In this document: positions 33,059 to 61,515 of the stretch, piece by piece | How the letters are laid out: every line of letters begins with the position of its first letter | Numbering within the stretch: the stretch's first letter is position 1 | Source of the DNA: Escherichia coli | GTDB taxonomy: Bacteria > Pseudomonadota > Gammaproteobacteria > Enterobacterales > Enterobacteriaceae | DNA length: 64,000 nt | NCBI RefSeq assembly: GCF_965641715.1 | Contig: NZ_OZ282453.1 | Reading direction: 5' to 3' (one strand) | Notes under the pieces: generated by a model | What the model was told of the DNA's origin: nothing | The model's input: only the letters and a program-made list of their open reading frames with translations | The model's database searches: none | Program-made: the position numbers and the translations under genes

Positions 33059-36000
33059 TTAATGGAAAATGACGTCAGGTGCGCTTAACGCCTCACTCAA
33101 ATCAAACACATCAAGTTCGGCAAAAGTGACGGATTTATTGTCACGGTACACTCGAAGAGAACGGAAGCTCATTAGCGCTTTGCTATCAACATTGTAGTGG
33201 TTAAAACCGGGTGAAAACTTAAGGACCAGCCGGTACTCACCCAGGTCATAGACAAATGCGTCCTCATAGCCTGACTCCCAGCCTTTGTATCGCATTCCCA
33301 TAAGTTGCCCAACGGTAGCGGATTTACCTTCCCAGCGAGTCAGGCTGTTACTGGTTGACTCGTCAGGTGTGAGCAGCACCGTGCGGCGCGACAACTGGCG
33401 AAAAGGCGGCATAATTTCGTAATCGGCAAAAAGCTGTGCAAATTCACTGCGCATTTCTGCTGTCATTTCTAACGGGTGGGCAATGCCAATCAGAGCATCC
33501 GCAGGAAGGTCAATGGGCTCATCCTGCGCATTGCAGAACTCCCCCTCTGCGGCCACACGAAAGGCGTTGAGTAAACGACGCGGTTCATTTGCCGGATAAA
33601 CCCCCCATATTAATCGCTGGGTAACCAGGCGGGTAAAGGGATGATTAACAAACAGAGAATGAAAATCTGCCAGCGACCAGCGTCGGGTGGTACGTAGGGC
33701 AGCTTCAAGACGCGGGAGCAGGTTTTTGCTCACCTGAGTAGCATCTTTTTTTAGCCCTTTTAGTCGGGCCAGTGCCTCGGGCGCTTTCAGTTGATCGTCA
33801 TCGGCACGCAACCGGGGAACACTTTTCTGGCGAACGTTTTGTTGATCAAAGATAACCGGGTTGAGGTTTTCATCGAAGCGAACGGTAAACTGCCGGGGAC
33901 CAAAATCAAAAATCAACGCCTGCGGATCATCAAGACCCAGTGTTGGGACTAATCTGTCCGCTAACTCTTCCTGGCTTAGCCCGCGATTTTCTGCGACCAC
34001 CTGAAGAAATTCCGCTGCGTTTTCACGTAATGAAGAGGATTTCGCCCGTTGTGATACATGATGCAGCTGTATCAGCGCCATATCATTATTCATCAAGGTA
34101 AGTATATTCAGACCAATGACAGCACGGGCAGATTTGCCTTCTTGTGGCCAGGCGAGGATCTGTGTCGTCAGATCCCGAGCCGTGCTTTCGTCACCAAAGA
34201 GACTTAACGCCAGAAATGCCCAGTTGTCTTTTGCGGGGGCACCAGCTTGTTGCCACGCAGTGAAGAGATCCCAGGCAAAAGCGGCCAGCGTTTGTGGCTG
34301 GCAAAACGTTTTCAGTTGTTCCAGACCGCTATAAAAACGTCCGCCCTGGGTAAAGCGCAGCATTTCGCCGATAATTTCCAGAGCGTCATCGGTAACAGGC
34401 TGATTATTAGTGATAAGTCGCGGCCTGGACCACATTGCCGGATGCCAGAAATCAGGGGCTTTTGGAATGCGTGCCGGGTAAATGTCCATTGGACCCTGTT
34501 TCAGTAAATGCTCCAGGGCAGGCCATACATCTGTACGCTGCCAGCGGTTTGCCACGGTTTGCAGCAATTCACCATGTCCCTGTTCGTAAAGTAAACGCAG
34601 GGCAAGTAATGCAGCTTCGCTATTATCGCTGGATTTGGTGAAGACAAGAGGGATAAGTGCAGTAGCCGTATGTTCCGGCCAATGTAAAATCCACTGGCGA
34701 GCCAGATCACGCTGCACCGCGAAACGTCGCCAGACGCGGGCAACGGGCAGGGCCAGTTCTGTTGCGCCAAAATTTAAAATTAACGGAAATGTTTCTTTTG
34801 GACGATGTAAAAAAGCCAACATCAGACCTGGTAGCGCATCCAACCCGAGGATACTGAGAAAATAGTCCTCACCCGCGAACAGATGTTTTTTCTCATTGAT
34901 ACGCAGCCAGAAGGTCAAAGCCATCTCACGCGGCAACTGTGCCAATAAATACAGGTTCCAGACACTCTTTTCCGGACGATAACGTGAGTAGTTGTCATTT
35001 TCCCATATGTTAATTAACGCTTCTATGTGACCGCTGCGGAGCGCCTGTTCTGCTAATTGTGCTTCCGGGGAGTTCCAGCCATTCAGGATCTCTTCAACCC
35101 GCCCCTGGTAGTAATGCCACTGAACAATGAGTGAATTGCGTGCAGCATCCAGTTTTCCGGGGAGTATATAATTCAGAAACAGCCATACATCATCCCCAAA
35201 ACCCAGTTCCTGTAATACAACTCGCCCACTTTTTTGTTCCATGCGTTCCGCAAGAGATTCCGTGCTGAAATAACGGGCAGACTCAGTGGAGGCAAGCCAC
35301 TCTTGTTCGCCTGGTTGCCAGTAAACTTGCGGGGTTAATTCGAGCGGTGCCAAATCAAGACGTGGAGCTGTCATTTTTTTCTTACTACGCCACGGTGGTG
35401 AAACGAGGATTTCAGGCAGATTGCTGTTATCGGTGCCATCAATAACCGGTTTGGGCGGTGCCAATAAATAACTATTCAGTACTGCCCGGGCTTGAGTACT
35501 TAACCACTGCATCACCTCTTCTGCCAGTTGTGGCTGCGATGCCATCAGCGTTTGTAACAGCGTACGCCAGTATTCATCGCGTGCTTTTTGCTGGGCAGGC
35601 AGCTTTTTGTCTTCGATGATTGGATAACCAGGGCGGGCTGGTGGTTCTTTTAACGCCAGCAGTTCTGCCAGTGCCGCGAGCGTCGCGTGGGGGAAGTTTT
35701 TACTGTATTTAGCCACACGTTGCAGGCTGGGTTTGTTTTTATCAGCCACCAGTAGCAAGGTGTGGATGACCTGCGGATGGTTAATTTGTACCAACAGACT
35801 GCCGCAATCTTCTTTATGGGCATACATCGCGAGGCGCGGAATGGCTGCCAGTCCTTGTTCGCGCAAAAGGGCGGCGCAGGCCGCGTAGCCGAAGTGGTTT
35901 TTTTGTGACATGTAGCTGGCTTCGCGATCGCTAAATACGTCCAGGCCCCAGTATCGTTCGAGTTTTTTTACCGCCGTATTATCAGTAGCAACGACCTTTA

Positions 36001-36691
36001 ACCACTCCTTTGAATGGAGACTTGACCGGGAGCTTTCAAGACTGGCGAGTTCATTGGCTATTTCAGGCTTTTCCGGGAGGATCAGCGCAATAAAAGGACG
36101 GCGAATTTTGGGTATTCCTGGCAGTGCGGCAATGAGTTTATCGGCACAACGCTGCCAGCAACTTTCCTCTGCCAGCGACAGATGCTTACGCAAACGGAGA
36201 TCGAAATCGTTATAGGTCGCGGAGCCATAACCGTAGCCATAGTCCTCGTCCTGATACTGCAATGTCACTACCAGAGGATCACTCTCATAACACCGCGCAA
36301 TAAACTGGCGTGCAATCACCACCTCAGTCGCATATTCCAGCCCCTCTTGTTGGACGATTTCGTCGAGCAACTGTTGGCTGTCATTTTGCGCGATACAGGC
36401 TAGCGCCGCCATTGTCCGGGCCGGGATTGAGGGTTTGTGTTCGCCGATCAAGTTGATGGCCTGCGTGATGGCGGACTGCCACTCCAGTGAAAAATTTTCA
36501 TAACGCCAGACAATGTTTTTTTTCTTCTCAGCTTTTTTTAGCAATTCATCACCCAGTGTCTGGATGAGGCTTTCAGTGATAACAGGCGCTGGTTCGCCCG
36601 GCCAATTGCGATGGCTGAGTGGTGTTTTACCCTTTTTATATTTCAGTTCCAGTTGGGCGTTATCAGCCAGCCACGGTAATTCCTTGTCCAT
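33059..36691 (-). CDS. yehI: giant DUF4132-type protein YehI (no WGR domain)
   Basis: 1210 aa; C-terminal ~350 aa shares conserved blocks with the two downstream paralogs (WAF.AL...GDESTAR, LDFGPRQFTV, ADYE..PPF). Confidence 0.88.
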   Translation of the reverse strand: MDKELPWLADNAQLELKYKKGKTPLSHRNWPGEPAPVITESLIQTLGDELLKKAEKKKNIVWRYENFSLEWQSAITQAINLIGEHKPSIPARTMAALACIAQNDSQQLLDEIVQQEGLEYATEVVIARQFIARCYESDPLVVTLQYQDEDYGYGYGSATYNDFDLRLRKHLSLAEESCWQRCADKLIAALPGIPKIRRPFIALILPEKPEIANELASLESSRSSLHSKEWLKVVATDNTAVKKLERYWGLDVFSDREASYMSQKNHFGYAACAALLREQGLAAIPRLAMYAHKEDCGSLLVQINHPQVIHTLLLVADKNKPSLQRVAKYSKNFPHATLAALAELLALKEPPARPGYPIIEDKKLPAQQKARDEYWRTLLQTLMASQPQLAEEVMQWLSTQARAVLNSYLLAPPKPVIDGTDNSNLPEILVSPPWRSKKKMTAPRLDLAPLELTPQVYWQPGEQEWLASTESARYFSTESLAERMEQKSGRVVLQELGFGDDVWLFLNYILPGKLDAARNSLIVQWHYYQGRVEEILNGWNSPEAQLAEQALRSGHIEALINIWENDNYSRYRPEKSVWNLYLLAQLPREMALTFWLRINEKKHLFAGEDYFLSILGLDALPGLMLAFLHRPKETFPLILNFGATELALPVARVWRRFAVQRDLARQWILHWPEHTATALIPLVFTKSSDNSEAALLALRLLYEQGHGELLQTVANRWQRTDVWPALEHLLKQGPMDIYPARIPKAPDFWHPAMWSRPRLITNNQPVTDDALEIIGEMLRFTQGGRFYSGLEQLKTFCQPQTLAAFAWDLFTAWQQAGAPAKDNWAFLALSLFGDESTARDLTTQILAWPQEGKSARAVIGLNILTLMNNDMALIQLHHVSQRAKSSSLRENAAEFLQVVAENRGLSQEELADRLVPTLGLDDPQALIFDFGPRQFTVRFDENLNPVIFDQQNVRQKSVPRLRADDDQLKAPEALARLKGLKKDATQVSKNLLPRLEAALRTTRRWSLADFHSLFVNHPFTRLVTQRLIWGVYPANEPRRLLNAFRVAAEGEFCNAQDEPIDLPADALIGIAHPLEMTAEMRSEFAQLFADYEIMPPFRQLSRRTVLLTPDESTSNSLTRWEGKSATVGQLMGMRYKGWESGYEDAFVYDLGEYRLVLKFSPGFNHYNVDSKALMSFRSLRVYRDNKSVTFAELDVFDLSEALSAPDVIFH

Positions 36692-36700
36692 GCTCTTTCC

Positions 36701-39700
36701 TTATTCAAACAGGGCTTCAATATCGTTAATTAGCTCGCTGGCGGTGATGGCATCGAGTACGGAGAGCTGCGCTTCCTGTATTGAATTACTCCCCCAGCCA
36801 TAGCTTTCCGCTTTGCCTTCCCATAGCCACAGCTTGCTTAAGAGTTGCTCGGCACTCAGTTCGGCTGGCGACATGCCTACCGCAAAGCCTTCATCGATTT
36901 CCATGATTAACGACCAGCGGCCCAGAGGTTTGATCATCCAGCCGATCCAGCCTCCATCCTGTGGTTCGCCCTTTATCCAGCCTTTATTCGCCAGCCCCAT
37001 TACCCGACCGCTCGGGCATTTTCTGCCTGCCCAGCGGGTCAGTTCGCTGGCATTGCGCTCGGTTTCTGTCAGGGCGTAACTGTTACGGTCGAGCTGGCGG
37101 AACGGCGGTAGCAGTTCGTAGTCGGCAAAAAGCTGCCCAAATGCGGCGGCATCCGTCGGTGATATTTCCAGAACGTGAGGAATACCAACAGAGATATCGC
37201 CTTCCGGCAGGGTGAAAAGATCATCGTCAGCGGTGCTGTAGCTGTTATCTTCCGCTACGCGGAAGCACGTCAGTAGCTGGTTTTCGGTGCTATAAACGCC
37301 CCAAATCAGACGGCGGGTTAAGTGGTGTACCAGTGGATGTTCAACCAGGAAGAGCTGAAAGTTTTCTGGCGACCAGCGGCGACGCAGGCACATGGCGGAT
37401 TCCAACCTTGCTACCTGCTGGGCGGCGACGGTACGCGCATCTTTTTTCAGCAGTTTGTAGCGGTTAACAGCATCGTTCGCCTGTGATTCATCATCGCTTT
37501 TGTTTGGTTTGGGCAGGTCTTTCAGACGGCTGCCGGAAGCGTCACGCACAAACGGTTTTAAGGTTTCATCAAAGCTGACGGTGAACTGGCGTGGGCCGAA
37601 ATCCAGCAGCAACGAACCGTTATCATCCAGACTGAGATCCGGTGCTAACCGATCTTCAAGCTCCGCCACTGTCAGTTCGCGACTTTCAGCAATGTCGGCA
37701 ATTTTCTCTTTCGCCCGCTCCTGTAAAGCTTTGAATTTCAGTTTCTGAGCAATGCCGTTAAGCTGCATCAGAGCGATATCACTACCGATAGCGGCGAGAA
37801 TATCCAACCCAACGGTGGCGCGTTTATGCTGAGATTCGCCAGGCCAGGCGCGTATTAATGGCGTCAGTTTGCGAGCGGTGTCGTCGTTACCGAGAACACA
37901 TAACGCAGTGAACGCCCAGCTTTCTTTCGATGGTGCACCCGTAGTCAGCCAGGCGGTAAACAGATCCCAGGCAAATTCAGCCAGTGAGTCGGCGGTACAG
38001 GCATCTTTCACCTGCAATAATCCCGGATACAGCGCCTCTTCCTGAGGGAAGCGGAGCATTTCACCGAGGTGGAGGAGGGCGTTATCTGGCAGTACCTTGC
38101 TGCTATTTTTGAGTTTTGGGCGAGTCCATAATGGAGGTTGATAAAACAACGGTAAAGGGGGGATTTTCGCCGGGTATTTACCCACAGGACTGTTGTCGTT
38201 ATTTTTATTTTGAGTTTCCCAGGGCGGCGAGACTAGTACCATTGGTAGAATTTCTGAGTTTGCAAAATCTTCATTGCGACTATTCAGCAATTGCTGACAT
38301 TGTTGCAATAAATTTGCCGCTTGCGACGATAATCCGATGACTAATTTTTCGACCAATAAAGGATTTGCATTAAGTAATGAAACCAGCAACGTATGTTTGC
38401 GTTTATCATCTTTTTTTACCAATTCTTCGGCTAATGCCGCTATCGTGGCAGAAGGAAAATTTTCGGCACTTTTTATTAGTCGTTCATAACAGCGTTTATT
38501 AGTATCGGCGGCTTCGATGAGTGCCGTAATGGCCAACGGATGATTAATACATTTCAGTACGTCACCGCAATTATCTTCTTCAGCATAGGAAGCCAGGCGA
38601 GCCAGTGCCGCTATACCTTGTTCCCGTAATACCGTAGCTGACCAACTGGCACCATAGGTGTTAAATACATCAATGTATTGATAGTTCTCCAGTATTTCGA
38701 GCGTGAATGGATCTGTCGCTACCAGTTTCAACATTTCAAGTTGTGGAACATCTGCGACCTGGTGTAAACGATGTACGATCTCATGGGCCACTTCGGGTAT
38801 TTCTGGCATTAAAATGGCAATTAACGGTTGGCGATAGAGTGATATATCTGGTAACGCAACGAGTAATTTTGCAATGCAATTTTGCCATACTTCTTCTTCT
38901 GCTAGTGATAAATGTTTACGCAGACGTAAACTAAATTTGTCGTTATTCCTTCTATAACTGTCCTTGCTGCTATCTGCATAATTAATAAAGAAAGTCAAAT
39001 GTTCATCTTTATAGTCAAAATCGAAATCAATTTGCCACCAGAAGATGACAGTTTCAGTTGCGTATTCGATACCGAAGGTGCTTACAATTTCATCCAGCAA
39101 CTCGGATGAGGTTTCATCATTCCAGCCCTGACAAAAACATATTTCCAGAAAAGTAAGTACCGCCATAGTACGCGCGGGTATCTCAGTCTTTTGGGCCTTA
39201 ATTAAGCTGATTGCCTGGCTAATCGCATCAGCCCATTCATCAGAGCATGAGCTGTAATCGAAAGTCAGATTTTTATAATAATGATAAGTACGATTTGCCA
39301 ATCGGGAAATTAAATTTTGTTTTTCGGGTTTGGTTGGTTTTTTAACTGGCTCTCCCGGCCAAAGGCGGTGGCTGAGGGCATGGCGGGCAATATTCGGGGG
39401 AAGAATAATGGGATCGTTGTCTGCCAGCCAGGGTAAACCATTAGTTGCTGCCTGGCGATTTATTGAGGCTTTTTCCTCTGTGACCAGGACTTTCTTTGCT
39501 GAGGCATCATGTGAGTGAGCGTTAGCGTCTACTTGCTCCACATACCCCTTCTTCACCTTCTCCGCAATCAGCTTCAGTTCCACTTTTTCCGCCGCCGCAG
39601 CATCTGCAAAGCTTTTTACCTGACTTTGCCCGTTAGTGCCGACTTTACCCCAGGTTATATGCAGCTCGTTTCCCTGCTGCTCCACCGCCCAGAATTTATG

Positions 39701-39733
39701 TGATTTTTCGTCCTGATAAATATAGGTTTTCAT
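36701..39733 (-). CDS. WGR-domain plus DUF4132 protein, 1010-aa paralog of MolR/YehI
   Basis: N-terminal WGR-like module (KFWAVEQQGNELHITWGKVGT) and C-terminal module about 75% identical to the molR-like product by eye. Confidence 0.85.
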   Translation of the reverse strand: MKTYIYQDEKSHKFWAVEQQGNELHITWGKVGTNGQSQVKSFADAAAAEKVELKLIAEKVKKGYVEQVDANAHSHDASAKKVLVTEEKASINRQAATNGLPWLADNDPIILPPNIARHALSHRLWPGEPVKKPTKPEKQNLISRLANRTYHYYKNLTFDYSSCSDEWADAISQAISLIKAQKTEIPARTMAVLTFLEICFCQGWNDETSSELLDEIVSTFGIEYATETVIFWWQIDFDFDYKDEHLTFFINYADSSKDSYRRNNDKFSLRLRKHLSLAEEEVWQNCIAKLLVALPDISLYRQPLIAILMPEIPEVAHEIVHRLHQVADVPQLEMLKLVATDPFTLEILENYQYIDVFNTYGASWSATVLREQGIAALARLASYAEEDNCGDVLKCINHPLAITALIEAADTNKRCYERLIKSAENFPSATIAALAEELVKKDDKRKHTLLVSLLNANPLLVEKLVIGLSSQAANLLQQCQQLLNSRNEDFANSEILPMVLVSPPWETQNKNNDNSPVGKYPAKIPPLPLFYQPPLWTRPKLKNSSKVLPDNALLHLGEMLRFPQEEALYPGLLQVKDACTADSLAEFAWDLFTAWLTTGAPSKESWAFTALCVLGNDDTARKLTPLIRAWPGESQHKRATVGLDILAAIGSDIALMQLNGIAQKLKFKALQERAKEKIADIAESRELTVAELEDRLAPDLSLDDNGSLLLDFGPRQFTVSFDETLKPFVRDASGSRLKDLPKPNKSDDESQANDAVNRYKLLKKDARTVAAQQVARLESAMCLRRRWSPENFQLFLVEHPLVHHLTRRLIWGVYSTENQLLTCFRVAEDNSYSTADDDLFTLPEGDISVGIPHVLEISPTDAAAFGQLFADYELLPPFRQLDRNSYALTETERNASELTRWAGRKCPSGRVMGLANKGWIKGEPQDGGWIGWMIKPLGRWSLIMEIDEGFAVGMSPAELSAEQLLSKLWLWEGKAESYGWGSNSIQEAQLSVLDAITASELINDIEALFE
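39665..39718. repeat. 54-bp segment identical to 43475-43528
   Basis: direct sequence comparison of the 5' coding ends of the two WGR paralogs. Confidence 0.85.
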
Positions 39734-39745
39734 TGTTAAATCCTT

Positions 39746-42700
39746 TTAATCAAACAGTGATTCAATGTCGTTAATCAGCTCGCTGGCGGTGATGTCGTCG
39801 AGCATGGAGAAAGTGGGTGAGGATTGTTTACCATAGCGATCATAAGGGGCGGTGATTTTTACGCTTTCGACAGGCAGCAGGTCGCTATACCCCGTTTCGC
39901 CATAAATTAATGAAAAAGGTTCCGTTTCAAGTTCGAGAGCACCATAAGGGGTAGATTTGCGCATCGCATAAACGCTGCCGCTTTCTTCCAGACGTTGCCA
40001 GCCTCGGCGTTCCAGCCCGACAATGCGTCCGGCCTGGCAGAGACGTCCGTTCCAGCGTGACAATTCATGGACATTACGTTCGTTATCAGCAAGGTGGTAA
40101 CTACCACGTTCGAGCTGTTGGAAAGGGGGAAGCAGTTCGTAATCAACGTAAATTTGCCTGAATGCAGCGGCGGATTCAGGGGGGATTTCCAGCACATGCG
40201 GTATACCGATGTTTCCTGCTGGCAGCGTGAATAACTCATCCTGCGCATCGCTGTAAGTGCTGTCTTCTGCCACGCGAAAACAGGTGATAAGAGCGTTTTC
40301 ATCGTTATAAACCCCCCATAACAGCCGTCGGGTTAAGTGACGTACCAGCGGATGCTCCACCAGAAACAGGCGGAACTGCTCTGCCGTCCAGCGTCTGCGC
40401 TGGCACATAGCCTGTTCCAGACGGGTAATATGCTGGCTGGCGATAGCACGAACATCTTTTTTCAACTGTTTGAAGAGATTAACTGCGTCAGTTGCCAGTG
40501 TTTTATCATCGCTCTGGTTTGGCTTAGGTAAATCTTTCAGGACTTTGCCGTTTGCATCGCACACTACAGGTTTTAAGGTTTCGTCAAAACCAACGGTGAA
40601 TTTGCGGGGGCCGAAATCCAGTATCAGCGAGCCACTGCTATCAAGCCCTAAATCTGGAGCCAGGCGGTCTTCCATTTCAGCCATAGTCAGCCCACGGTTT
40701 TCAGCAACTATGTTGATTTTCTCGCGGGCATGTTCCTGTAATGCTTTGAATTTAATTTTTCGCGCGATGCCATTAAGCAGCATTAGCGCAACATCGCTGC
40801 CAATATCAGCTAATACATCCAGCCCGGACACCGCCCGTTTATGCTGGGATTCCCCAGGCCAGGCGCGGATAAGCGGGGTTAATTTACGCGCGGTGTCGTC
40901 ATTGCCTAAAATCCCAAGCGAAGTAAATGCCCAGTTTTCTTTTGCGGGTGCGCCAGCTTCTGTCCAGGCGGTATACAGATCCCAGCCAAATTCAGCCAGT
41001 GATTCGCGGGTGAAGATTTCTCTAATGATATCCAGCCCAGCGTAGGCGGTAATGTCGCGAGGAAAGCTCAGCATAGTGCCGAGGTGGCGCATAGCGTCAT
41101 CTGACAGAGGCAGGTTGTTACTTTTAAGCCGTGGTCTGCGCCATAAGGTGAACTGATAAAAGCCGGGCAGTGGGGCGATTTTAGCGGGATATTCTTCCAG
41201 CGGCTCGCTATCAAATAATGTTGCCAGCGCAGCTAAAACATCAGGTTGGTTATACCCCTGGGCGATTTCTTCAATCGTTTCTCGCTGGTTTAAATTCACC
41301 AGCAGACGAAGCGCCTGGCGGGCACAATCACGATCTTTTCCTTTTTTGCCCAAGGCCACAGGAAGTAGCCCGGCGGCAGCATGGCGTGGGAAGTTAGCCA
41401 GCCATTTTCGAGCATCTTCAGCAGACATTTTTTTCTGTAATCGCTGCGCCATCGGTAATGCTAATTCGCTGACGCCCAGGAAGAGGGTGAATATCCATAA
41501 CTGTTGTGGCTTACGTTGCAGACATTTCATAAACGCAGGAATGGCCGCATCACCAAAAATCGCCAGAATTTCTCTCTCGCCGGAGAATTGCTCTTCATTA
41601 ATTATTTGATTGAGAAAAGAAATAGCATGCTGAGTGGGTAGGAAGCAGAGCGCGTACAACTGCCAGTGTCTGCTTCCTTTGTTATGGTATTGCGCAAACT
41701 CGGCTTTCAGCGCGGGGAAATCGAAACGTAACAGGGCATCAACTGCGCTTTGTGGCATTATTTTTTTTTCGTATTGTTCTTCTCCGGTTCTGCGCCATTC
41801 CTTAAACCCCAGTCGCCAAAGGATTTGCTGTTCTGGCGTTAAAGGGATGAAAGACGTTTCCCAGCGTTCTTTTTTTATCGGTGGCAGGTCGGTAAATAAG
41901 GTTTGCTGTGATGCCTGATATTGCGCGATTTCACTGAATCTGGATATGTCAGTATGACTGATTAACTCTGTAATTCCTGGTGTGATATCCGTGACGGCAG
42001 GAATGGGAAGTACCGGTAAATCAAATACGGGTATGACATTCTTTTTCTTATTTATTACCCACGGTGGAGCGACAAGCAGCTCCGGCAACATATCCACAGT
42101 GGCATATTCACATTCTTCAGCTACTGGCAGCGGACGACATTCAGATAAGATGCCTGCCGCCTTAGCATTAACCCAGGGAATGACCTCGCATACTAACTCT
42201 GGCGTGGCGGTAATCAGTTTGACAAGCGCTTTACGCCACTCATTATTTTCATGTATTGCCAGCAAAGTAGCATAAGCGGCAATAGCCGCAGCGGGATGTT
42301 TTTGGCAGGCTTTGCTTAAGTATTCCAGGTGCTTTTTCTTGCCATTTACACCGAGGATCAGAATTTGAATCGCATCCGGGTGATTCGTTTTCCATAGCCA
42401 TTTGACAAGATCTTCAGTCTCGCTGATACGCTCGAAGAGATAAGTGGGATTGTCAGAATGCTCTTCCGTAAACTCAAGAAGTATCCGGCTTACACCGCGC
42501 ACCCCATTATTTGCCAGCAACATTGCCAGATAAGCGCGAAAATCATGATACAACGGTGGGAAGTCGTATTTTTCTGCTGTAGTCAGAGCGGCGTCATCGG
42601 TTACCACCAGTCTTAACCAGGTCATCGCCGGAACGTTTTGATCTGCATAACGTAGCGCCATAGCATTGGCAATATCCGGGCGTTCAGGGAGCAGTAACGC

Positions 42701-43543
42701 CGCAAAAGGTTGTCGTGCTGGGGATAGCGAGGGAATAGCAGCGAGTACTTTATCTACACAGCGTTGCCACTCATCTTCTGAAGCGAGTGAAAGATGATGA
42801 CATAGACGTTGATGCCAACTCGGTAGCGATTCTGCTTCGTGATTAGGTGGAATGATGGTGGTTACTGCGCCTTTTACTGGTTTATATTTGAGTTGAAGAG
42901 CGAGAAGGGCGATTTCAACGGCACTTTCCAGACCACAGCGAATGACTAAGTCATCGACCAGTTCATCTTGAGAGTAAGAGTTCCAAAAGCCCCAGAGCAA
43001 TGCTGCATCAGATTGCGCACTCCCTGTCGGTTGATTACCCTTAACTCGCATTTGTAACTCAGCAAAAGCCTGCTGCCAGTTTTCTGGATAAGAGCGGTAA
43101 TTGTTGTCGGGATCATATGCCCTGGTGTTATTCGCGATGCGCTTCCATATTTGGCCATCTTTGTACAGATAATTGATCTCTCTGGGGCGAGAGCGATGAG
43201 GAAAAGCAAATCGATTAATATCGTCAGTGACCGGAATGACTGCATCATCAGCCAGCCAGGGGCGTTGGTTTTTACTCTCAGGGGAAGTTTCAACTTCAGG
43301 AGTGGCTTTGGTAATGGGGGGGATATGCACGTTTGCTGAAGCATTTTCCACATAGCCTTTTTTCGTTTTCTCCGCGATAAGCTTCAGTTTCGCTTTTTCC
43401 GCTGCTGCAACATCAGCAAAATTTTTTACCTGGCTTTGCCCTTGGGTACCAACTTTTCCCCAGCTGATATGCAACTCGTTTCCCTGCTGCTCCACCGCCC
43501 AGAATTTATGTGATTTTTCGTCCTGATAGATAAAGTGTCTCAT
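39746..43543 (-). CDS. molR: WGR-domain plus DUF4132 protein, full length (MolR-like)
   Basis: 1265-aa uninterrupted ORF; N-terminal WGR (KFWAVEQQGNELHISWGKVGT); position directly downstream of metG. Confidence 0.85.
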   Translation of the reverse strand: MRHFIYQDEKSHKFWAVEQQGNELHISWGKVGTQGQSQVKNFADVAAAEKAKLKLIAEKTKKGYVENASANVHIPPITKATPEVETSPESKNQRPWLADDAVIPVTDDINRFAFPHRSRPREINYLYKDGQIWKRIANNTRAYDPDNNYRSYPENWQQAFAELQMRVKGNQPTGSAQSDAALLWGFWNSYSQDELVDDLVIRCGLESAVEIALLALQLKYKPVKGAVTTIIPPNHEAESLPSWHQRLCHHLSLASEDEWQRCVDKVLAAIPSLSPARQPFAALLLPERPDIANAMALRYADQNVPAMTWLRLVVTDDAALTTAEKYDFPPLYHDFRAYLAMLLANNGVRGVSRILLEFTEEHSDNPTYLFERISETEDLVKWLWKTNHPDAIQILILGVNGKKKHLEYLSKACQKHPAAAIAAYATLLAIHENNEWRKALVKLITATPELVCEVIPWVNAKAAGILSECRPLPVAEECEYATVDMLPELLVAPPWVINKKKNVIPVFDLPVLPIPAVTDITPGITELISHTDISRFSEIAQYQASQQTLFTDLPPIKKERWETSFIPLTPEQQILWRLGFKEWRRTGEEQYEKKIMPQSAVDALLRFDFPALKAEFAQYHNKGSRHWQLYALCFLPTQHAISFLNQIINEEQFSGEREILAIFGDAAIPAFMKCLQRKPQQLWIFTLFLGVSELALPMAQRLQKKMSAEDARKWLANFPRHAAAGLLPVALGKKGKDRDCARQALRLLVNLNQRETIEEIAQGYNQPDVLAALATLFDSEPLEEYPAKIAPLPGFYQFTLWRRPRLKSNNLPLSDDAMRHLGTMLSFPRDITAYAGLDIIREIFTRESLAEFGWDLYTAWTEAGAPAKENWAFTSLGILGNDDTARKLTPLIRAWPGESQHKRAVSGLDVLADIGSDVALMLLNGIARKIKFKALQEHAREKINIVAENRGLTMAEMEDRLAPDLGLDSSGSLILDFGPRKFTVGFDETLKPVVCDANGKVLKDLPKPNQSDDKTLATDAVNLFKQLKKDVRAIASQHITRLEQAMCQRRRWTAEQFRLFLVEHPLVRHLTRRLLWGVYNDENALITCFRVAEDSTYSDAQDELFTLPAGNIGIPHVLEIPPESAAAFRQIYVDYELLPPFQQLERGSYHLADNERNVHELSRWNGRLCQAGRIVGLERRGWQRLEESGSVYAMRKSTPYGALELETEPFSLIYGETGYSDLLPVESVKITAPYDRYGKQSSPTFSMLDDITASELINDIESLFD
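43475..43528. repeat. 54-bp segment identical to 39665-39718
   Basis: direct sequence comparison. Confidence 0.85.
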
Positions 43544-54644: not shown

Positions 54645-54778
54645 CAACCAAACGACTCGGGGTGCCCTTCTACGTGAAGGCTGAGAAATACCCGTATCAC
54701 CTGATCTGGATAATGCCAGCGTAGGGAAGTCACGGACCACCAGGTCATTGCTTCTTCACGTTATGGCAGGAGCAAACT
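54645..54778 (+). ncRNA. TPP riboswitch (THI-box) leader of thiMD
   Basis: conserved THI-box CTGAGA...ACCTGATCTGGATAATGCCAGCGTAGGGAA; expression platform overlaps the thiM RBS GGCAGGAG. Confidence 0.9.
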
Positions 54779-56428: not shown

Positions 56429-57247
56429 ATGCAGCTAAGCATTACCAGTCGAAAAAAACTCACCGCTCTATTATGCGCTCTTGGGCTAATTTCCATCGTT
56501 GCAATTTATCCGCGTCAGACGGTGAATTTTTTCTATTCGACAGCAGTTCAGATTACAGACTACATCCACTTCTACGGTTATCGCCCGGTTAAATCTTTCG
56601 CTATTCGCATTCCTGCCAGTTACACCATTCACGGAATAGATGTTTCGCGCTGGCAGGAGCGGATCGACTGGCAGCGGGTGGCAAAAATGCGCGACAACGG
56701 TATCCGCTTACAGTTTGCTTTTATTAAGGCGACGGAAGGCGAAAAGCTGGTGGACCCGTATTTTTCGCGTAACTGGCAACTAAGCCGCGAAAATGGCCTG
56801 CTGCGCGGGGCGTATCATTATTTCTCCCCGTCGGTAGCAGCGCCGGTTCAGGCGCGATTATTTCTGCAAACGGTGGATTTCTCACAAGGCGATTTCCCTG
56901 CCGTGCTGGACGTAGAAGAACGGGGAAAATTATCGGCAAAAGAATTACGCAAGCGGGTAAGTCAGTGGCTAAAAATGGTCGAAAAAAGTACGGGAAAAAA
57001 GCCGGTTATTTACTCAGGAGCCGTTTTTTATCACACCAATCTGGCGGGCTATTTCAATGAATATCCGTGGTGGGTGGCTCACTACTATCAACGTCGTCCG
57101 GACAATGACGGCATGGCCTGGCGCTTCTGGCAGCATTCCGACCGTGGACAGGTAGATGGCATCAATGGTCCGGTGGATTTTAATGTATTTAATGGCACGG
57201 TGGAGGAGTTGCAGGCATTCGTTGATGGGATTAAAGAAACGCCTTAA
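56429..57247 (+). CDS. yegX: GH25 lysozyme-like glycoside hydrolase YegX
   Basis: 272 aa from MQLSITSRKK with N-terminal membrane anchor (ORF-track start 56420 has no RBS spacing). Confidence 0.85.
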   Translation: MQLSITSRKKLTALLCALGLISIVAIYPRQTVNFFYSTAVQITDYIHFYGYRPVKSFAIRIPASYTIHGIDVSRWQERIDWQRVAKMRDNGIRLQFAFIKATEGEKLVDPYFSRNWQLSRENGLLRGAYHYFSPSVAAPVQARLFLQTVDFSQGDFPAVLDVEERGKLSAKELRKRVSQWLKMVEKSTGKKPVIYSGAVFYHTNLAGYFNEYPWWVAHYYQRRPDNDGMAWRFWQHSDRGQVDGINGPVDFNVFNGTVEELQAFVDGIKETP

Positions 57248-57298
57248 ATAAGAAGCAGTGATATACTCCCACCAGACTCCCTGGCAGGAAAAAGACAA

Positions 57299-58045
57299 AT
57301 GGAACAAGCGCATACCCAGCTGATTGCCCAACTGAACGAGCGTATTTTAGCGGCGGATAACACGCCGCTTTATATTAAGTTTGCCGAAACGGTAAAAAAT
57401 GCCGTGCGCAGCGGGGTGCTGGAGCATGGCAATATTTTGCCCGGTGAGCGTGATTTAAGTCAGTTAACCGGCGTTTCGCGCATTACGGTGCGCAAGGCGA
57501 TGCAGGCGCTGGAAGAAGAGGGCGTGGTGACGCGTTCGCGTGGTTACGGCACGCAGATCAACAACATCTTCGAATACTCGTTGAAAGAAGCGCGAGGTTT
57601 TTCTCAGCAGGTGGTATTGCGCGGGAAAAAGCCCGATACGCTATGGGTTAACAAGCGTGTCGTGAAATGTCCCGAAGAAGTCGCGCAGCAGCTGGCGGTC
57701 GAAGCGGGAAGTGATGTCTTTTTGCTTAAGCGTATTCGCTATGTCGATGAAGAAGCGGTATCGATTGAGGAATCGTGGGTTCCGGCGCATTTAATTCATG
57801 ATGTTGATGCCATCGGAATTTCTCTTTATGACTATTTCCGCAGCCAGCACATTTACCCACAACGTACACGTTCCCGCGTTAGCGCCCGGATGCCAGATGC
57901 CGAGTTTCAGTCACATATTCAGTTAGATAGCAAAATACCGGTGCTGGTGATCAAGCAAGTGGCGCTTGACCAACAGCAACGGCCTATTGAATACAGCATT
58001 AGCCACTGTCGCAGCGATCTATACGTTTTTGTTTGCGAGGAGTAG
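57299..58045 (+). CDS. yegW: GntR/HutC-family transcriptional regulator YegW
   Basis: N-terminal GntR wHTH and UTRA effector domain; 248 aa. Confidence 0.9.
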   Translation: MEQAHTQLIAQLNERILAADNTPLYIKFAETVKNAVRSGVLEHGNILPGERDLSQLTGVSRITVRKAMQALEEEGVVTRSRGYGTQINNIFEYSLKEARGFSQQVVLRGKKPDTLWVNKRVVKCPEEVAQQLAVEAGSDVFLLKRIRYVDEEAVSIEESWVPAHLIHDVDAIGISLYDYFRSQHIYPQRTRSRVSARMPDAEFQSHIQLDSKIPVLVIKQVALDQQQRPIEYSISHCRSDLYVFVCEE

Positions 58046-58984
58046 TTCCTCGCGCGTTGGCGCACAATCACCGCCCCGATGCCCGACAACCCACGACGCC
58101 ACTGCATTGCCCAGTAATACGGCATCCGCCAGTGGCAGACCAGAGGCCAGCCCGGCAAGTACGCCACCGGCATGACTGTCGCCCGCCCCAATGGTGTCGA
58201 CAACTTGCGTTGGAAATGCCGGAATGCAGCCAGAAGCGTCGTTGCTGAAATACCATGCGCCTTCTTTATCGAGACGAACGATCAACGGCGCGGCAAATTT
58301 CTCCTGCCATTGTTTGCCAAGTGTTGTTATCTCTGCGGATAAAGCAAAACGTTCGGCGGCAATCTCAGCCTCTTGACGATTGAGTGACACTAAAGGTCGA
58401 CAGGCCATGATCCGCGCCAGTAATGCATCCGGGATATCGCCAATACGTGGGCCAAAATCGATAAACGGCGTCACGTCTTGCAGCTTTTCCAGCCATTCCA
58501 CTAATAATTCGCCGCAGGGCGAGGCCATTTGATAACCGGAAAAATAGAGCAGGCTGCCAGGCGCAACGGTTAATCGCGCCAGACACTGGCGATTCCACTG
58601 ATTTTCCACACCGCTGAATGACATAAAAGTGCGTTCGCCATCCGGCTCAACCAGCGCCAGACACCAGCCGTTATCACCTTCGGCGTTATCGATCAGGCTG
58701 ATTAAGCCCTCTTTTGCCATCCGGTTGCGAATAATCTCCGCCCACACGCCCTGACCGAGCGGCAAGGCGTTACCCGCTTCGATGCCGAGGCGTTTTAACG
58801 CCACGGCAATATTCAGGGCGCAGCCGCCAACGTTAACGCTCTGCTGTTTCAGTTCGATATCGCACCCACGCCAGGGGAGGGCATAAGCGTCGGCGATCAC
58901 GTCAATGACCGCCGCGCCGACGACCATCACCGGCTGACGCGTGGTTAATTCAGGCAGCAGCGTGTGTAATCGAGCGCCGCTCAT
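58019..58984 (-). CDS. yegV: PfkB-family sugar/nucleoside kinase YegV
   Basis: 321 aa; ribokinase-like motifs (DTIGAGDSHAGGVLAG). Confidence 0.9.
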   Translation of the reverse strand: MSGARLHTLLPELTTRQPVMVVGAAVIDVIADAYALPWRGCDIELKQQSVNVGGCALNIAVALKRLGIEAGNALPLGQGVWAEIIRNRMAKEGLISLIDNAEGDNGWCLALVEPDGERTFMSFSGVENQWNRQCLARLTVAPGSLLYFSGYQMASPCGELLVEWLEKLQDVTPFIDFGPRIGDIPDALLARIMACRPLVSLNRQEAEIAAERFALSAEITTLGKQWQEKFAAPLIVRLDKEGAWYFSNDASGCIPAFPTQVVDTIGAGDSHAGGVLAGLASGLPLADAVLLGNAVASWVVGHRGGDCAPTREELLLANKNV

Positions 58985-59985
58985 ACCACCTCCCGTTGTT
59001 GGCGATACTTCGCCAGCGCTGTGGCATAGCGGTTGAAATCAAGCTGATTTACCGCATCCAGTTCCGCCTTTAACGCAGGATCGATAGCGTTAACGCCATG
59101 CAACGCGCCGCAAATCGCCGTCGCCATAGCGCCGATGGTGTCTGTGTCGCCGCCAAGGTTAGCGCACAGGACGGCGCAACGGTTCGGGTCGGTTTGTGCC
59201 AGTTCAACCAGCGCAATGGCGCACGGAACGGACTCAATAGTGCTGGTACCTGCGCCAACGACCTGGTAAAGCTGTTCGCTGGCGGATTCAGTGCCGTCGG
59301 CATTGCGCACAATTTTCAGCGCAATCTCCAGACGTGCTGCCAGTGAGGCGCTGAAGGTAGTGATGCGTTTTTGCTGTGCATGTCGCGCAATTGAAGGCAG
59401 TGAATCAACAATCGCTGACCAGCTTTCTCCGTCAATGGCACGAGAAATCGCCCATGCGATGACTACCGCGCCTGCAACCGCCAGATCGGATTTATGGGTC
59501 GGGCTGGACGCCAGCGCCACATCATCAATAAAGGAATCAACATCGTGCGCCGGAAGCAAACAACCTAATGGCGAGACGCGCATCGCTGCGCCGTTGGTCA
59601 CGCCGTTGTTTTCCAGTTCAGCAACGGGTTTACCGTCGCGAATGGCGTTGAGAGCAATCTTCGAGGTCGGACCTAGTACGTTTTTGTTAAAGGCGTCGAA
59701 ACGCAGCGCCCAGTCGAGAATATTACGCCCAATCAGATTCGGGTCGATCTTGCCTTCACGTTCCAGTAACGCATCCGCCAGACACAGCGCCATCGAGGTA
59801 TCGTCGGTGAATTCGGCGCGGTTAAAATAACAGGCCGCGTTATTCTCCTTTGGTCCAGGCAGAAAACGGTCAATCCAGCCAAAGTGTGCTTTAACGCGGC
59901 TGCGTGGCCAAAGCTCGGAGGGCATCCCCATCGCATCCCCTAACGCCTGCCCATAAAGAGCACCGAGAATACGTTCTGTTTTCAT
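58981..59985 (-). CDS. yegU: ADP-ribosylglycohydrolase-family protein YegU
   Basis: 334 aa; ARH fold motifs (GQALGDAMG, GGDTDTIGAMA); ATGA overlap with yegV. Confidence 0.9.
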   Translation of the reverse strand: MKTERILGALYGQALGDAMGMPSELWPRSRVKAHFGWIDRFLPGPKENNAACYFNRAEFTDDTSMALCLADALLEREGKIDPNLIGRNILDWALRFDAFNKNVLGPTSKIALNAIRDGKPVAELENNGVTNGAAMRVSPLGCLLPAHDVDSFIDDVALASSPTHKSDLAVAGAVVIAWAISRAIDGESWSAIVDSLPSIARHAQQKRITTFSASLAARLEIALKIVRNADGTESASEQLYQVVGAGTSTIESVPCAIALVELAQTDPNRCAVLCANLGGDTDTIGAMATAICGALHGVNAIDPALKAELDAVNQLDFNRYATALAKYRQQREVV

Positions 59986-61259
59986 TTAACTTCCCCTTGT
60001 GTCAACGCAATATCGCGATCATCGACCTTGATAGCCGTAATTTCGTTGTCGGATTCGCGGAAAAAAATCATGAACAGCACGGCGATAATGGCAATCATCA
60101 CCGCGCCAAAAGTCCACATCCCGGACCAGTTGAAAGTCAGTCCGTTTACCGGTTCCTGATAAGCGAACATCTTTTCCATCATCACACCGCCAAGACGATA
60201 GCCGAGCAAACTGCCGAAGCCCTGGCAGCAGAGCGTGATCAGCCCCTGCGCGGCGGTACGCATATGCACGGGGGCTTTTTTATCGACATAGATGTAAGCG
60301 GTAACGTAGTAAAAATCGTAACTTACGCCGTGAAGCAAAATACCGAGGAACAGTAACGCGTAGGTGAAATATTCATCCGCACTACCGTAAATAAAGAAGC
60401 CATAGCGGATCGCAGCGGTGATTAGACCAAGCAATAATACCTTTTTGATACCAAAGCGTTTAGTGAAAAACGGCAATGCCAGCATAAAGAAGATTTCAGA
60501 GAACTGGCCGAGCGTCATCCAGCCGGTGGCGTTTTTCATGCCAACTTCGGTCAGATAACCGTTGGCAAAGATGTAATAGAACGCCAGTGGCATCGCAAAC
60601 AGGAATGAACAGAAGAAAAAGACGAGGAAGTTTTTATCGCGCAGCAGGATCAGCGCATCCAGGCCGAGCATGACTTTAATGTCCATTTTGCCGGTGCTTT
60701 TTGGTGGCGTGTCGGGCAGGAAAAACGCAAACACACCGAGCAGAGCAGAACTTCCGGCGGTAATCAGCAGCGGGATGTTAGTCGGTGAGATATCGGCATA
60801 CCCCAGCATTTGCGGCAAGAAACCACATGCCAGACCGGAGGCAATCCAGCCGATAGTGCCCATCACACGAATGCGCGGGAAATCACGCTCAACATCCGGC
60901 ACGTTGGCAAAAGCGATGCTGTTAGTCAGCGCAATGGTCGGCATATAGGTTAGCGAGTAGGCCAGCAGTAACGGGAAGAACCCGGCAAAAGTGGTCTGTT
61001 GCGCGGCGAAATACATCAGCACCGCACCAGCGAACATCAATACCGCCAGCACTTTCTGCGCCGAGAAAAAGCGGTCAGTGATGGAGCCAACCAGAATTGG
61101 CGACAGGATCGCCGCAATGGCTGTGCAGGCATACGACCAGCCAATTTCTCCGGCACTAAAACCGCTTTTACTTAACCACAACCACAATGGCACAAACCAC
61201 GCGCCCCAGATAAACCATTCAACAAACATCATGAACGACAGCTTTGCTGTTGTTTTCAT
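59982..61259 (-). CDS. yegT: MFS nucleoside transporter (NupG/XapB family) YegT
   Basis: 425 aa polytopic MFS protein; ATGA overlap with yegU. Confidence 0.9.
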   Translation of the reverse strand: MKTTAKLSFMMFVEWFIWGAWFVPLWLWLSKSGFSAGEIGWSYACTAIAAILSPILVGSITDRFFSAQKVLAVLMFAGAVLMYFAAQQTTFAGFFPLLLAYSLTYMPTIALTNSIAFANVPDVERDFPRIRVMGTIGWIASGLACGFLPQMLGYADISPTNIPLLITAGSSALLGVFAFFLPDTPPKSTGKMDIKVMLGLDALILLRDKNFLVFFFCSFLFAMPLAFYYIFANGYLTEVGMKNATGWMTLGQFSEIFFMLALPFFTKRFGIKKVLLLGLITAAIRYGFFIYGSADEYFTYALLFLGILLHGVSYDFYYVTAYIYVDKKAPVHMRTAAQGLITLCCQGFGSLLGYRLGGVMMEKMFAYQEPVNGLTFNWSGMWTFGAVMIAIIAVLFMIFFRESDNEITAIKVDDRDIALTQGEVK

Positions 61260-61515
61260 CTTTTAATTCCTTCATGACAGGTAATGTAAGGTACGCGATG
61301 ACAATACCACTTAATAATACCTTTTAAATACCTTTGCGGTGAAAACTTGACCGCGCTAACATTTTTTCTGATGAATCGAGCCAACAGAAAACGCTGAAAA
61401 AACATCCAAAAGATGGAAAAACTCGCCCGTAACGACCAGGATTATGATTGCCCGCAAAAGGCGGGCCAGGACAATCCATAGCCGATATCCAATCGGAATT
61501 TACGGGAGCATAGTA

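Follow-up and report, generated by a model that had tools for sequence, protein, structure and literature searches.

The window analysed here, a 64,000-nucleotide stretch of Escherichia coli DNA (contig NZ_OZ282453.1), carries the operon yegTUV and the gene of its repressor, yegW. We propose, with somewhat better than even confidence, that yegTUV is a self-contained and normally silent salvage or catabolic operon in which a glycoside is imported, phosphorylated by the kinase YegV and then cleaved by the phosphoglycoside hydrolase YegU, and that this glycoside is probably a riboside with an unusual aglycone. The proton symporter YegT would import the non-canonical glycoside, after which YegV would phosphorylate the primary hydroxyl of its sugar (the 5'-OH if the sugar is ribose). 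YegU, which has the two-metal fold of the ADP-ribosylglycohydrolase (ARH) family, would hydrolyse this phosphorylated intermediate to a sugar phosphate (ribose 5-phosphate) and the free aglycone. YegW, also named GgaR, would silence the operon from GGTAT repeats overlapping the −10 element, until released by a ligand that resembles a nucleotide and is probably the phosphorylated intermediate; ADP-glucose would mimic or equal this ligand in vitro, and CRP would probably aid activation.

The three genes form one operon. They are transcribed as a single 3.3-kb transcript (PMC10819704), and both internal junctions are true ATGA overlaps, gttaaATGAaaaca between yegT and yegU and gtggtATGAgcggc between yegU and yegV. 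An earlier note on this DNA had listed these genes together with yegW and the neighbouring yegX, and their open reading frames (ORFs), Pfam domains and junction sequences confirm the five genes, their domain families and both overlaps at the coordinates it gave (Table 1). The RefSeq annotation contains the identical five genes under identical names.

We then compared the operon with its relatives in other bacteria. A search of 1.84 billion representative proteins (50% identity) returned 6864 relatives of YegU. A scan of species-representative genomes, one per species, gave a neighbourhood set of 79 loci. These span Enterobacterales, Vibrio, Aeromonas, Gilliamella, Bacillales, Lactobacillales, Lachnospiraceae, Dialister, Sutterellaceae, Actinobacteria, Chloroflexi and others. 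At 64 of the 79 loci the YegU homolog has a YegV-like PfkB gene in the same orientation no more than 5 kb away, usually abutting it or with one transporter gene between them, and the pair is found in Proteobacteria, Firmicutes, Actinobacteria and Chloroflexi. Lengths of 600-760 aa are common among the top 150 YegU relatives. Nine of the ten long homologs that were scanned are fusions of an ARH and a PfkB domain, four in the order PfkB-ARH and five in the order ARH-PfkB, and the occurrence of both orders implies that the fusion arose more than once. Because of this co-location and these fusions, we conclude that the YegU hydrolase and the YegV kinase are functionally coupled.

The importer is exchanged between loci. 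The NHS-family transporter YegT is found at 30 loci, all of them gamma-proteobacterial, while an NCS1 permease is present at 19 loci, a PnuC-type transporter at 13 and an ECF transporter in several metagenomic contigs (L084-86 and L088). Nucleosides, ribosides and heterocyclic compounds of the vitamin type are substrates common to the NHS, NCS1, PnuC and ECF families, and the vitamin-type set (PnuC, NCS1 and ECF) suggests a cofactor-derived riboside. A YegW-like GntR/HutC gene stands beside the YegU homolog at 53 of the 79 loci. No additional aglycone-processing enzyme recurred with the module at about twenty distant loci, where nothing else was co-oriented with it; the unit therefore consists of a regulator, an importer, a kinase and a hydrolase.

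Several individual loci depart from the common arrangement. Three ECF-containing contigs (L084/L085, 1-6020, and L086) encode a GntR/UTRA regulator, a PfkB kinase, the ECF S, A and T components and then the ARH, and in the fourth (L088, 726-5719) the ECF transporter adjoins a PfkB-ARH fusion. Two Edwardsiella loci (L029 and L031) and one from Serratia bockelmannii (L037) have yegU and yegW homologs beside purB-hflD without yegT or yegV, and may represent a decayed or re-purposed module. In a Leifsonia metagenome-assembled genome (L057, 7206-9005), about 270 residues with no Pfam match precede the ARH domain of a 599-aa ORF; this may be a real N-terminal extension or an artefact of calling ORFs from the first possible start. 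At one locus (L089, 86-4172) an NCS1 permease, a 193-aa isochorismatase-family protein and an ARH-PfkB fusion are translationally coupled. The isochorismatase-family protein, whose only PDB match is a nicotinamidase of P. horikoshii (2e-6), has no homolog in the 79 loci; as a single case it weakly hints at a carboxamide aglycone such as nicotinamide.

YegU belongs to the ARH family by sequence, scoring 224 bits against PF03747 (cut-off 26.2). Its AlphaFold2 model (predicted local distance difference test score 97) was compared with solved structures using Foldseek. The best match was MJ1187 (template modelling score 0.82/0.90), followed by an ARH-related protein from Thermus, ARH3 and DraG, with a probability of 1.00 for MJ1187, ARH3 and DraG and template modelling scores of 0.72-0.90. 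YegU residues E24, T60-D61-D62, D280, D282 and T283 align with E41, T76-D77-D78, D314, D316 and T317 of ARH3, and these metal ligands and the catalytic glutamate E24 are invariant or nearly so among 79 homologs. ARH3 H182 is kept as H164, which together with W92, N131 and R218 makes up the invariant residues specific to the YegU family. Conversely, the adenine-stacking residues F143 and Y149 of ARH3 are not kept, as the YegU alignment gives N126/N127 and V129 at these positions, which vary within the family. Against the NCBIfam equivalogs for DraG and Tri1, YegU reached only 80 and 70 bits, far under the cut-offs of 337 and 490, and no NCBIfam equivalog scored above its cut-off for YegU, YegV or YegW. 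Since the catalytic and metal-binding residues are kept and the adenine-stacking residues are not, YegU is an ARH member by fold and catalytic machinery that lacks the mark of an ADP-ribose-specific enzyme. We propose that it is a putative phosphoglycoside (ribotide) hydrolase with a two-metal centre.

Six loci without a kinase bear on the order of the reactions. In these Firmicutes operons (L071, L072, L079, L081, L082 and L087), a YegU cousin of 35-37% identity lies directly downstream of genes for a LicT-type antiterminator (CAT_RBD and PRD domains) and an EIIBC(A) component of the phosphotransferase system (PTS). Here the ARH gene fills the slot normally held by a phospho-beta-glucosidase. 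The PTS is of the beta-glucoside class (TIGR01995), the protein of L081 being the one member above the cut-off (693 bits, cut-off 615), and the cousin ARHs retain E24, the metal ligands, W92, N131, H164 and R218. A PTS phosphorylates its substrate during entry and so replaces both transporter and kinase, which means that the cousin ARH must act on a phosphorylated glycoside.

The kinase itself points the same way. YegV has a ribokinase as its best solved relative (1e-16). D28, GG53-54, N58 and GAGD266-269 are conserved, among them the sugar-binding Asp and Asn and the anion hole with its catalytic Asp; the two glycine-containing motifs, GG53-54 and GAGD266-269, do not vary among 65 family members, which places YegV in the PfkB/ribokinase family. 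It is not ribokinase proper, scoring 82.7 bits against the ribokinase equivalog TIGR02152 (cut-off 299.65), and it falls below every other NCBIfam equivalog cut-off as well. The position of ribokinase Lys43 is a cysteine in 57 of the 65 family members, and that of Asn14 is hydrophobic (Val, Phe, Met or Ile) across the family. In ribokinase, these two residues presumably contact the free anomeric end of ribose. We therefore infer that the kinase acts before the hydrolase, and four points beside the PTS operons agree with this order: uptake by PnuC-type transporters depends on trapping by a kinase, all characterised ARH substrates known to us carry a phosphate on the ribose that is cleaved, the Salmonella kinase STM4066 (see below) acts on a riboside, and the Lys43 and Asn14 positions of YegV have changed. 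YegV would then phosphorylate the primary hydroxyl of the imported glycoside.

YegT belongs to the NHS family (TIGR00889, 653 bits, cut-off 446) and differs by only a few substitutions from PDB entry 8ZOJ, named 'putative nucleoside transporter YegT' (match at 9.6e-282). This 3.1 Å crystal structure has the fold of the major facilitator superfamily with 12 transmembrane helices (PMC11979927). YegT has the ribose contacts R136, T140 and E264 of NupG unchanged, but other residues where NupG contacts the base (PMC8042404, PMC11979927). Isothermal titration calorimetry detected no binding of uridine, adenosine, cytidine or guanosine to YegT (PMC11979927), and uptake assays with uridine, cytidine, xanthosine and gemcitabine were negative (PMC11241209). 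Unlike NupG and XapB, YegT thus showed neither binding nor transport of canonical nucleosides in these published assays. Its description in the earlier note as a nucleoside transporter of the major facilitator superfamily holds for the family and not for the canonical nucleosides tested. Ribose is the most likely sugar, considering the ribose triad of this NHS transporter, the PnuC-type partners, the ribokinase-like kinase, ARH chemistry and the precedent of a riboside kinase. The beta-glucoside-class PTS of the cousins and the effector reported for YegW make a hexoside possible.

YegW has the GntR winged helix and C-terminal UTRA domain of a GntR/HutC regulator and represses the adjacent operon (PMC10819704). 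Chromatin immunoprecipitation on microarrays found a single genomic target, yegTUV, and the protein was renamed GgaR (Saito et al. 2024, PMC10819704). GgaR bound the 190-bp region preceding yegT and showed weaker binding to probe-5, which spans yegT nt 571-869; in a ggaR mutant yegTUV is derepressed about 30-fold, as established by electrophoretic mobility shift assay (EMSA), Northern blot and quantitative reverse-transcription PCR (PMC10819704). That study gives no binding motif (PMC10819704). We aligned 31 gamma-proteobacterial regions upstream of yegT orthologues and found a sharply conserved footprint, AAAGGTATTTAAAAGGTATTAT-N5-TGGTAT-N10-GTACC, of which Vibrio has a version with the third element inverted (TGGTATT-N9-AATACCA). 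In the window this footprint predicts a primary operator (Table 1) whose sequence is unique within the window and lies inside the published 190-bp probe (PMC10819704). We place the exact sequence of this operator from the alignment. The spacer between fbaB and yegT contains one sigma-70-like promoter only, and its predicted −10 falls within the second GGTATT repeat, which fits repression by occlusion.

Only one other match to the 19-nt operator core was found in the window at up to four mismatches. This near-copy lies within yegT, inside the fragment that GgaR binds more weakly (PMC10819704). Such a match of our footprint to binding data obtained independently lends the proposed operator good support. 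The near-copy itself is conserved only partly at synonymous positions in other genera, and could be either an auxiliary site or a chance product of the coding sequence. A CRP-like site adjoins the predicted −35, and its half-sites are kept across Enterobacterales in the upstream alignment. Genomic SELEX (systematic evolution of ligands by exponential enrichment) detected CRP binding to the fbaB/yegT spacer (PMC3105977), and this CRP-like sequence is the probable site of that binding.

These data bear on several claims of the earlier note. It had suggested mapping the YegW operator in the 61260-61515 region, and since GgaR binding to the 190-bp upstream region is published (PMC10819704), this has largely been done at the level of fragments; the candidate operator from our footprint falls in the same region. 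It had also called the module an orphan. This stands for the substrate and not for the regulator, which is GgaR (PMC10819704). No substrate for YegT, YegU or YegV is assigned in the literature searched, in PDB molecule names or in NCBIfam release 20, in line with the note, which knew of no defined substrate.

Among known systems, the parallel that the note had drawn with pseudouridine salvage is strengthened by the comparative data on the kinase-hydrolase pair. Like the E. coli operon psuK-psuG-psuT (yeiC-yeiN-yeiM), yegTUV combines a transporter, a PfkB kinase and a glycosidase-type gene in one operon; in the psu pathway the kinase phosphorylates the intact nucleoside, and the glycosidase then turns this 5'-phosphate into ribose 5-phosphate and the base. 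The components differ, however. PsuG has the YeiN fold and acts on a C-glycoside, whereas YegU is a two-metal enzyme of the ARH fold and does not belong to the YeiN/PsuG family. The psu transporter is of the CNT family rather than NHS, and YegV is not an orthologue of PsuK, as the plant pseudouridine kinase 7C1X matches it at only 9e-4. By analogy, yegTUV may work like the pseudouridine family without being a member of it.

Salmonella STM4065-4066-4067 also combines a permease, a PfkB kinase and a putative ARH. Its kinase phosphorylates aminoimidazole riboside at the 5' position, and the neighbouring putative ARH gene helps the bacterium to persist in the gut of pigs (PMC3161100). This operon is paralogous and not orthologous to yegTUV, given that the match between YegV and the STM4066 structure 1TYY reaches only 6e-5. 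The aminoimidazole riboside kinase was reportedly described by Dougherty and Downs in 2003, and a GntR-type repressor encoded by the adjacent stm4068 is said to control the operon. The fructoselysine operon frlABCDR likewise joins a transporter and a PfkB kinase to an enzyme for splitting the phosphorylated intermediate, under a GntR/HutC repressor that has a UTRA domain, but FrlB is a SIS-type deglycase and the substrates are Amadori compounds. In bgl/lic operons a glycoside is phosphorylated on or just after entry and the phosphoglycoside is then hydrolysed. They use a PTS, an antiterminator and GH1/GH4 enzymes, where yegTUV has a symporter with a PfkB kinase, a GntR/HutC repressor and an ARH fold. 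Finally, ARH3, ARH1, DraG and MJ1187 have the fold, two-metal ligands and catalytic glutamate of YegU. ARH enzymes take ADP-ribose off proteins or split derivatives of ADP-ribose, while YegU sits in a small-molecule uptake operon, and MJ1187, its closest solved relative, is a structure without functional assignment.

Other readings of the operon deserve weighing. In one, the hydrolase acts first: YegU would be a nucleoside hydrolase for an unphosphorylated riboside and YegV a ribokinase for the ribose released, as in the hydrolase-first uriR-rbsK1-uriT-uriH operon of Corynebacterium. The best characterised relatives of YegV are indeed ribokinases, and fusion or adjacency shows that two steps are consecutive, not which comes first. 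We consider this order unlikely, because the PTS-linked ARHs receive a substrate already phosphorylated at entry, with no kinase, because YegV falls so far short of the ribokinase equivalog and has a cysteine and hydrophobic residues where ribokinase presumably holds the anomeric end, and because the ribose cleaved by known ARHs bears a phosphate. The PTS-linked operons lend themselves instead to a hexoside, such as an N- or O-glucoside, for which YegV would serve as the glucoside 6-kinase, with YegU hydrolysing the 6-phosphoglucoside in place of the GH1/GH4 phospho-beta-glucosidases. The cousin ARHs stand in just that slot, preceded by a LicT-type antiterminator and a PTS IIABC of the beta-glucoside class, and there is a glucose moiety in the reported effector (PMC10819704). 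Against this, E. coli has as its importer an NHS protein in which the ribose-binding triad is retained (PMC8042404). Ribose is also indicated by the PnuC-type importers and the ribokinase-like kinases, the known chemistry of ARHs is all at ribose C1'', and we regard a hexoside in E. coli as rather improbable.

The study of GgaR proposed that the operon tunes glycogen directly through ADP-glucose or another ADP-sugar, with YegT importing ADP-glucose and YegU and YegV acting on it. In EMSA, 10-100 µM ADP-glucose frees GgaR while glucose and ADP do not, and the ggaR mutant stores about twice as much glycogen (PMC10819704); a yegV deletion mutant is glycogen-deficient on ADP-glucose medium (PMC6195507). 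However, the effector assay was otherwise limited to glucose and ADP, and the action of the three proteins on ADP-glucose is a proposal (PMC10819704). Hydrolysis of ADP-glucose should lower glycogen, yet derepression raises it. None of the PnuC-type, NCS1, ECF or PTS importers of homologous modules is known to carry nucleotide sugars, and YegU lacks the adenine-stacking residues of ARH3. A 30-fold increase in a transporter and a possibly nucleotide-cleaving enzyme could shift growth or adenylate pools, and glycogen with them indirectly. We thus find a direct role in ADP-glucose metabolism about as improbable as a hexoside substrate. Least probable by far is that YegU removes ADP-ribose from proteins or nucleic acids in connection with WGR proteins or toxin/defence. 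It belongs to the ARH family with its catalytic residues kept, and the WGR genes to which the earlier note drew attention are present 12.9 kb away, but a functional link to them is not borne out. The gene yegU is translationally coupled both to a transporter gene and to a sugar kinase gene, and is fused to the latter in other taxa; the module occurs in unrelated chromosomal contexts elsewhere; and the missing adenine-binding residues and the low DraG and Tri1 scores do not fit such an enzyme.

A kinase-first operon for a riboside therefore remains our preferred reading, with several points that weigh against it. The enzymatic activity of neither YegU nor YegV is known, and their putative roles are assigned by comparison. 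To our knowledge, the ARHs characterised so far all cleave ADP-ribose in an alpha linkage, whereas the linkage in ordinary nucleosides is beta; this raises the possibility of an alpha-riboside. The beta-glucoside-class PTS beside the cousin ARHs points to a hexoside over a riboside, at least in that clade. ARH-paired kinases come from different PfkB lineages (YegV is matched by the PfkB protein of L084 at only 6e-7 by BLASTP, and by STM4066/1TYY at only 6e-5), so substrates may differ between clades. Neither a riboswitch nor an extra enzyme that would identify the aglycone was found: an Rfam scan of 19 distant loci detected no riboswitch adjoining the module; a thiamine pyrophosphate (TPP) riboswitch of L055 lies 7 kb off and on the other strand. 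Lastly, the sole reported effector of YegW is ADP-glucose and the phenotypes concern glycogen (PMC10819704, PMC6195507), which our model accounts for only indirectly.

Beyond E. coli we offer a broader and more tentative proposal, which we hold with less than even confidence. YegU-type proteins would form a large uncharacterised ARH branch that hydrolyses small phosphorylated glycosides (ribotides) and not ADP-ribosylated macromolecules, fed by a PfkB kinase or a PTS, and E. coli yegTUV would salvage a non-canonical riboside derived from a cofactor or RNA. Candidate substrates are pyridine ribosides (nicotinamide or nicotinate riboside), an alpha-riboside and imidazole-carboxamide riboside. 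We know of no gene assigned to nicotinamide mononucleotide (NMN)-nucleosidase activity, and if nicotinamide or nicotinate riboside were the substrate, yegTUV would supply one. The PTS-linked cousins would likewise be the first PTS route for such ribosides.

The locus names, repression by YegW (GgaR) and the YegT structure 8ZOJ were already known. New here are the conservation of the pair across phyla, the fusions in two orders, the transporter swaps, the PTS-linked cousins and the placement of the operator. The operon is among the conserved operons of E. coli without an assigned function, and the hydrolase-kinase pair is widespread in gut bacteria, including Enterobacterales, Lachnospiraceae, lactobacilli, Sutterellaceae and Dialister. 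If our model is true, the ARH fold gains a metabolic role in phosphoglycoside cleavage, a gut nutrient or cofactor-salvage route is defined, and the glycogen phenotype of the ggaR mutant might be revisited as a by-product of derepression. The comparative evidence narrows the function to a short list of biochemical assays.

Table 1. Features of the yegTUV region in window coordinates, and spans of PTS-linked ARH operons in the coordinates of their own loci
Feature	Coordinates	Strand	Description
yegX	56420/56429-57247	+	GH25 muramidase-like neighbour; Pfam Glyco_hydro_25 3.7e-54, full profile covered
yegW (ggaR)	57299-58045	+	GntR/HutC-type repressor; GntR (PF00392) and UTRA (PF07702)
yegV	58019-58984	-	PfkB-family kinase; Pfam PfkB 5e-56, 190.6 bits
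yegU	58981-59985	-	ARH-fold hydrolase; Pfam ADP_ribosyl_GH PF03747 3.7e-66
yegT	59982-61259	-	NHS-family importer, first gene of the operon; Pfam Nuc_H_symport 1e-183
yegW/yegV convergent 3' overlap	58019-58045	both	27 bp, from ORF coordinates
Proposed primary YegW/GgaR operator	61290-61332	-	GGTATTTAAAAGGTATTATTAAGTGGTATTGTCATCGCGTACC; three GGTAT repeats and inverted GTACC; from footprint
Predicted sigma-70 promoter of yegTUV	61314-61343	-	-35 TTCACC 61343-61338, -10 TATTAT 61319-61314; consensus scan 9/12
Intragenic near-copy of operator core	60434-60452	-	GGTATCAAAAAGGTATTAT; 17/19 identical, yegT nt 808-826
CRP-like site	61343-61364	-	AAATGTTAGCGCGGTCAAGTTT; TGTTA-N6-TCA block in upstream alignment
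PTS-linked ARH operon, L081	2137-6014		
PTS-linked ARH operon, L082	2228-5972		
PTS-linked ARH operon, L087	572-4330		

The surrounding region is typical of the species. Positions 54-64 kb of the window are colinear with the E. coli chromosome (rcnA-rcnR-thiM-thiD-yegX-yegW-(yegV-yegU-yegT)-fbaB-gatY), and the best match to this segment has 99.3% identity. The 8-kb block is present at a coverage of at least 80% in 5410 of 5426 complete E. coli genomes; the yegX-to-yegT block is core E. coli chromosome. The 3' ends of yegW and yegV overlap, and RNA-seq data have placed the pair among the excludon candidates (PMC12288877), so that antisense interference between the transcripts of the repressor and the operon is possible.

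In Hafnia, Rahnella and Edwardsiella the module lies beside purB-hflD, a context unrelated to that in E. coli, and yegX, thiMD and the WGR genes are not part of it. The earlier note had listed yegX with the module, yet of the 79 loci that of E. coli (L002) is the only one with a YegX homolog next to the module, and we set yegX aside as a neighbour. YegX has GH25 lysozyme 2WAG as its best PDB match (2e-32), and a hydrophobic N-terminal stretch, LTALLCALGLISIVAIYP, read by eye from the sequence, predicts a membrane-anchored GH25 muramidase-like protein. On the far side of yegX, the RefSeq annotation of the closest E. coli genome (L001, 1649-1745) places a TPP riboswitch upstream of thiM, which would correspond to about 54648-54744 (+) in the window.

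The WGR genes belong to three tandem DUF4132 paralogs at 33059-43543 (-) of the window: 39746-43543 (1265 aa), 36701-39733 (1010 aa) and 33059-36691 (1210 aa). Two of the three carry an N-terminal WGR domain, the WGR and DUF4132 ORFs spanning 36701-43543, and no link between these paralogs and yegU was found. The ORF at 39746-43543 looks like an intact molR, a gene that we take to be a pseudogene in K-12.

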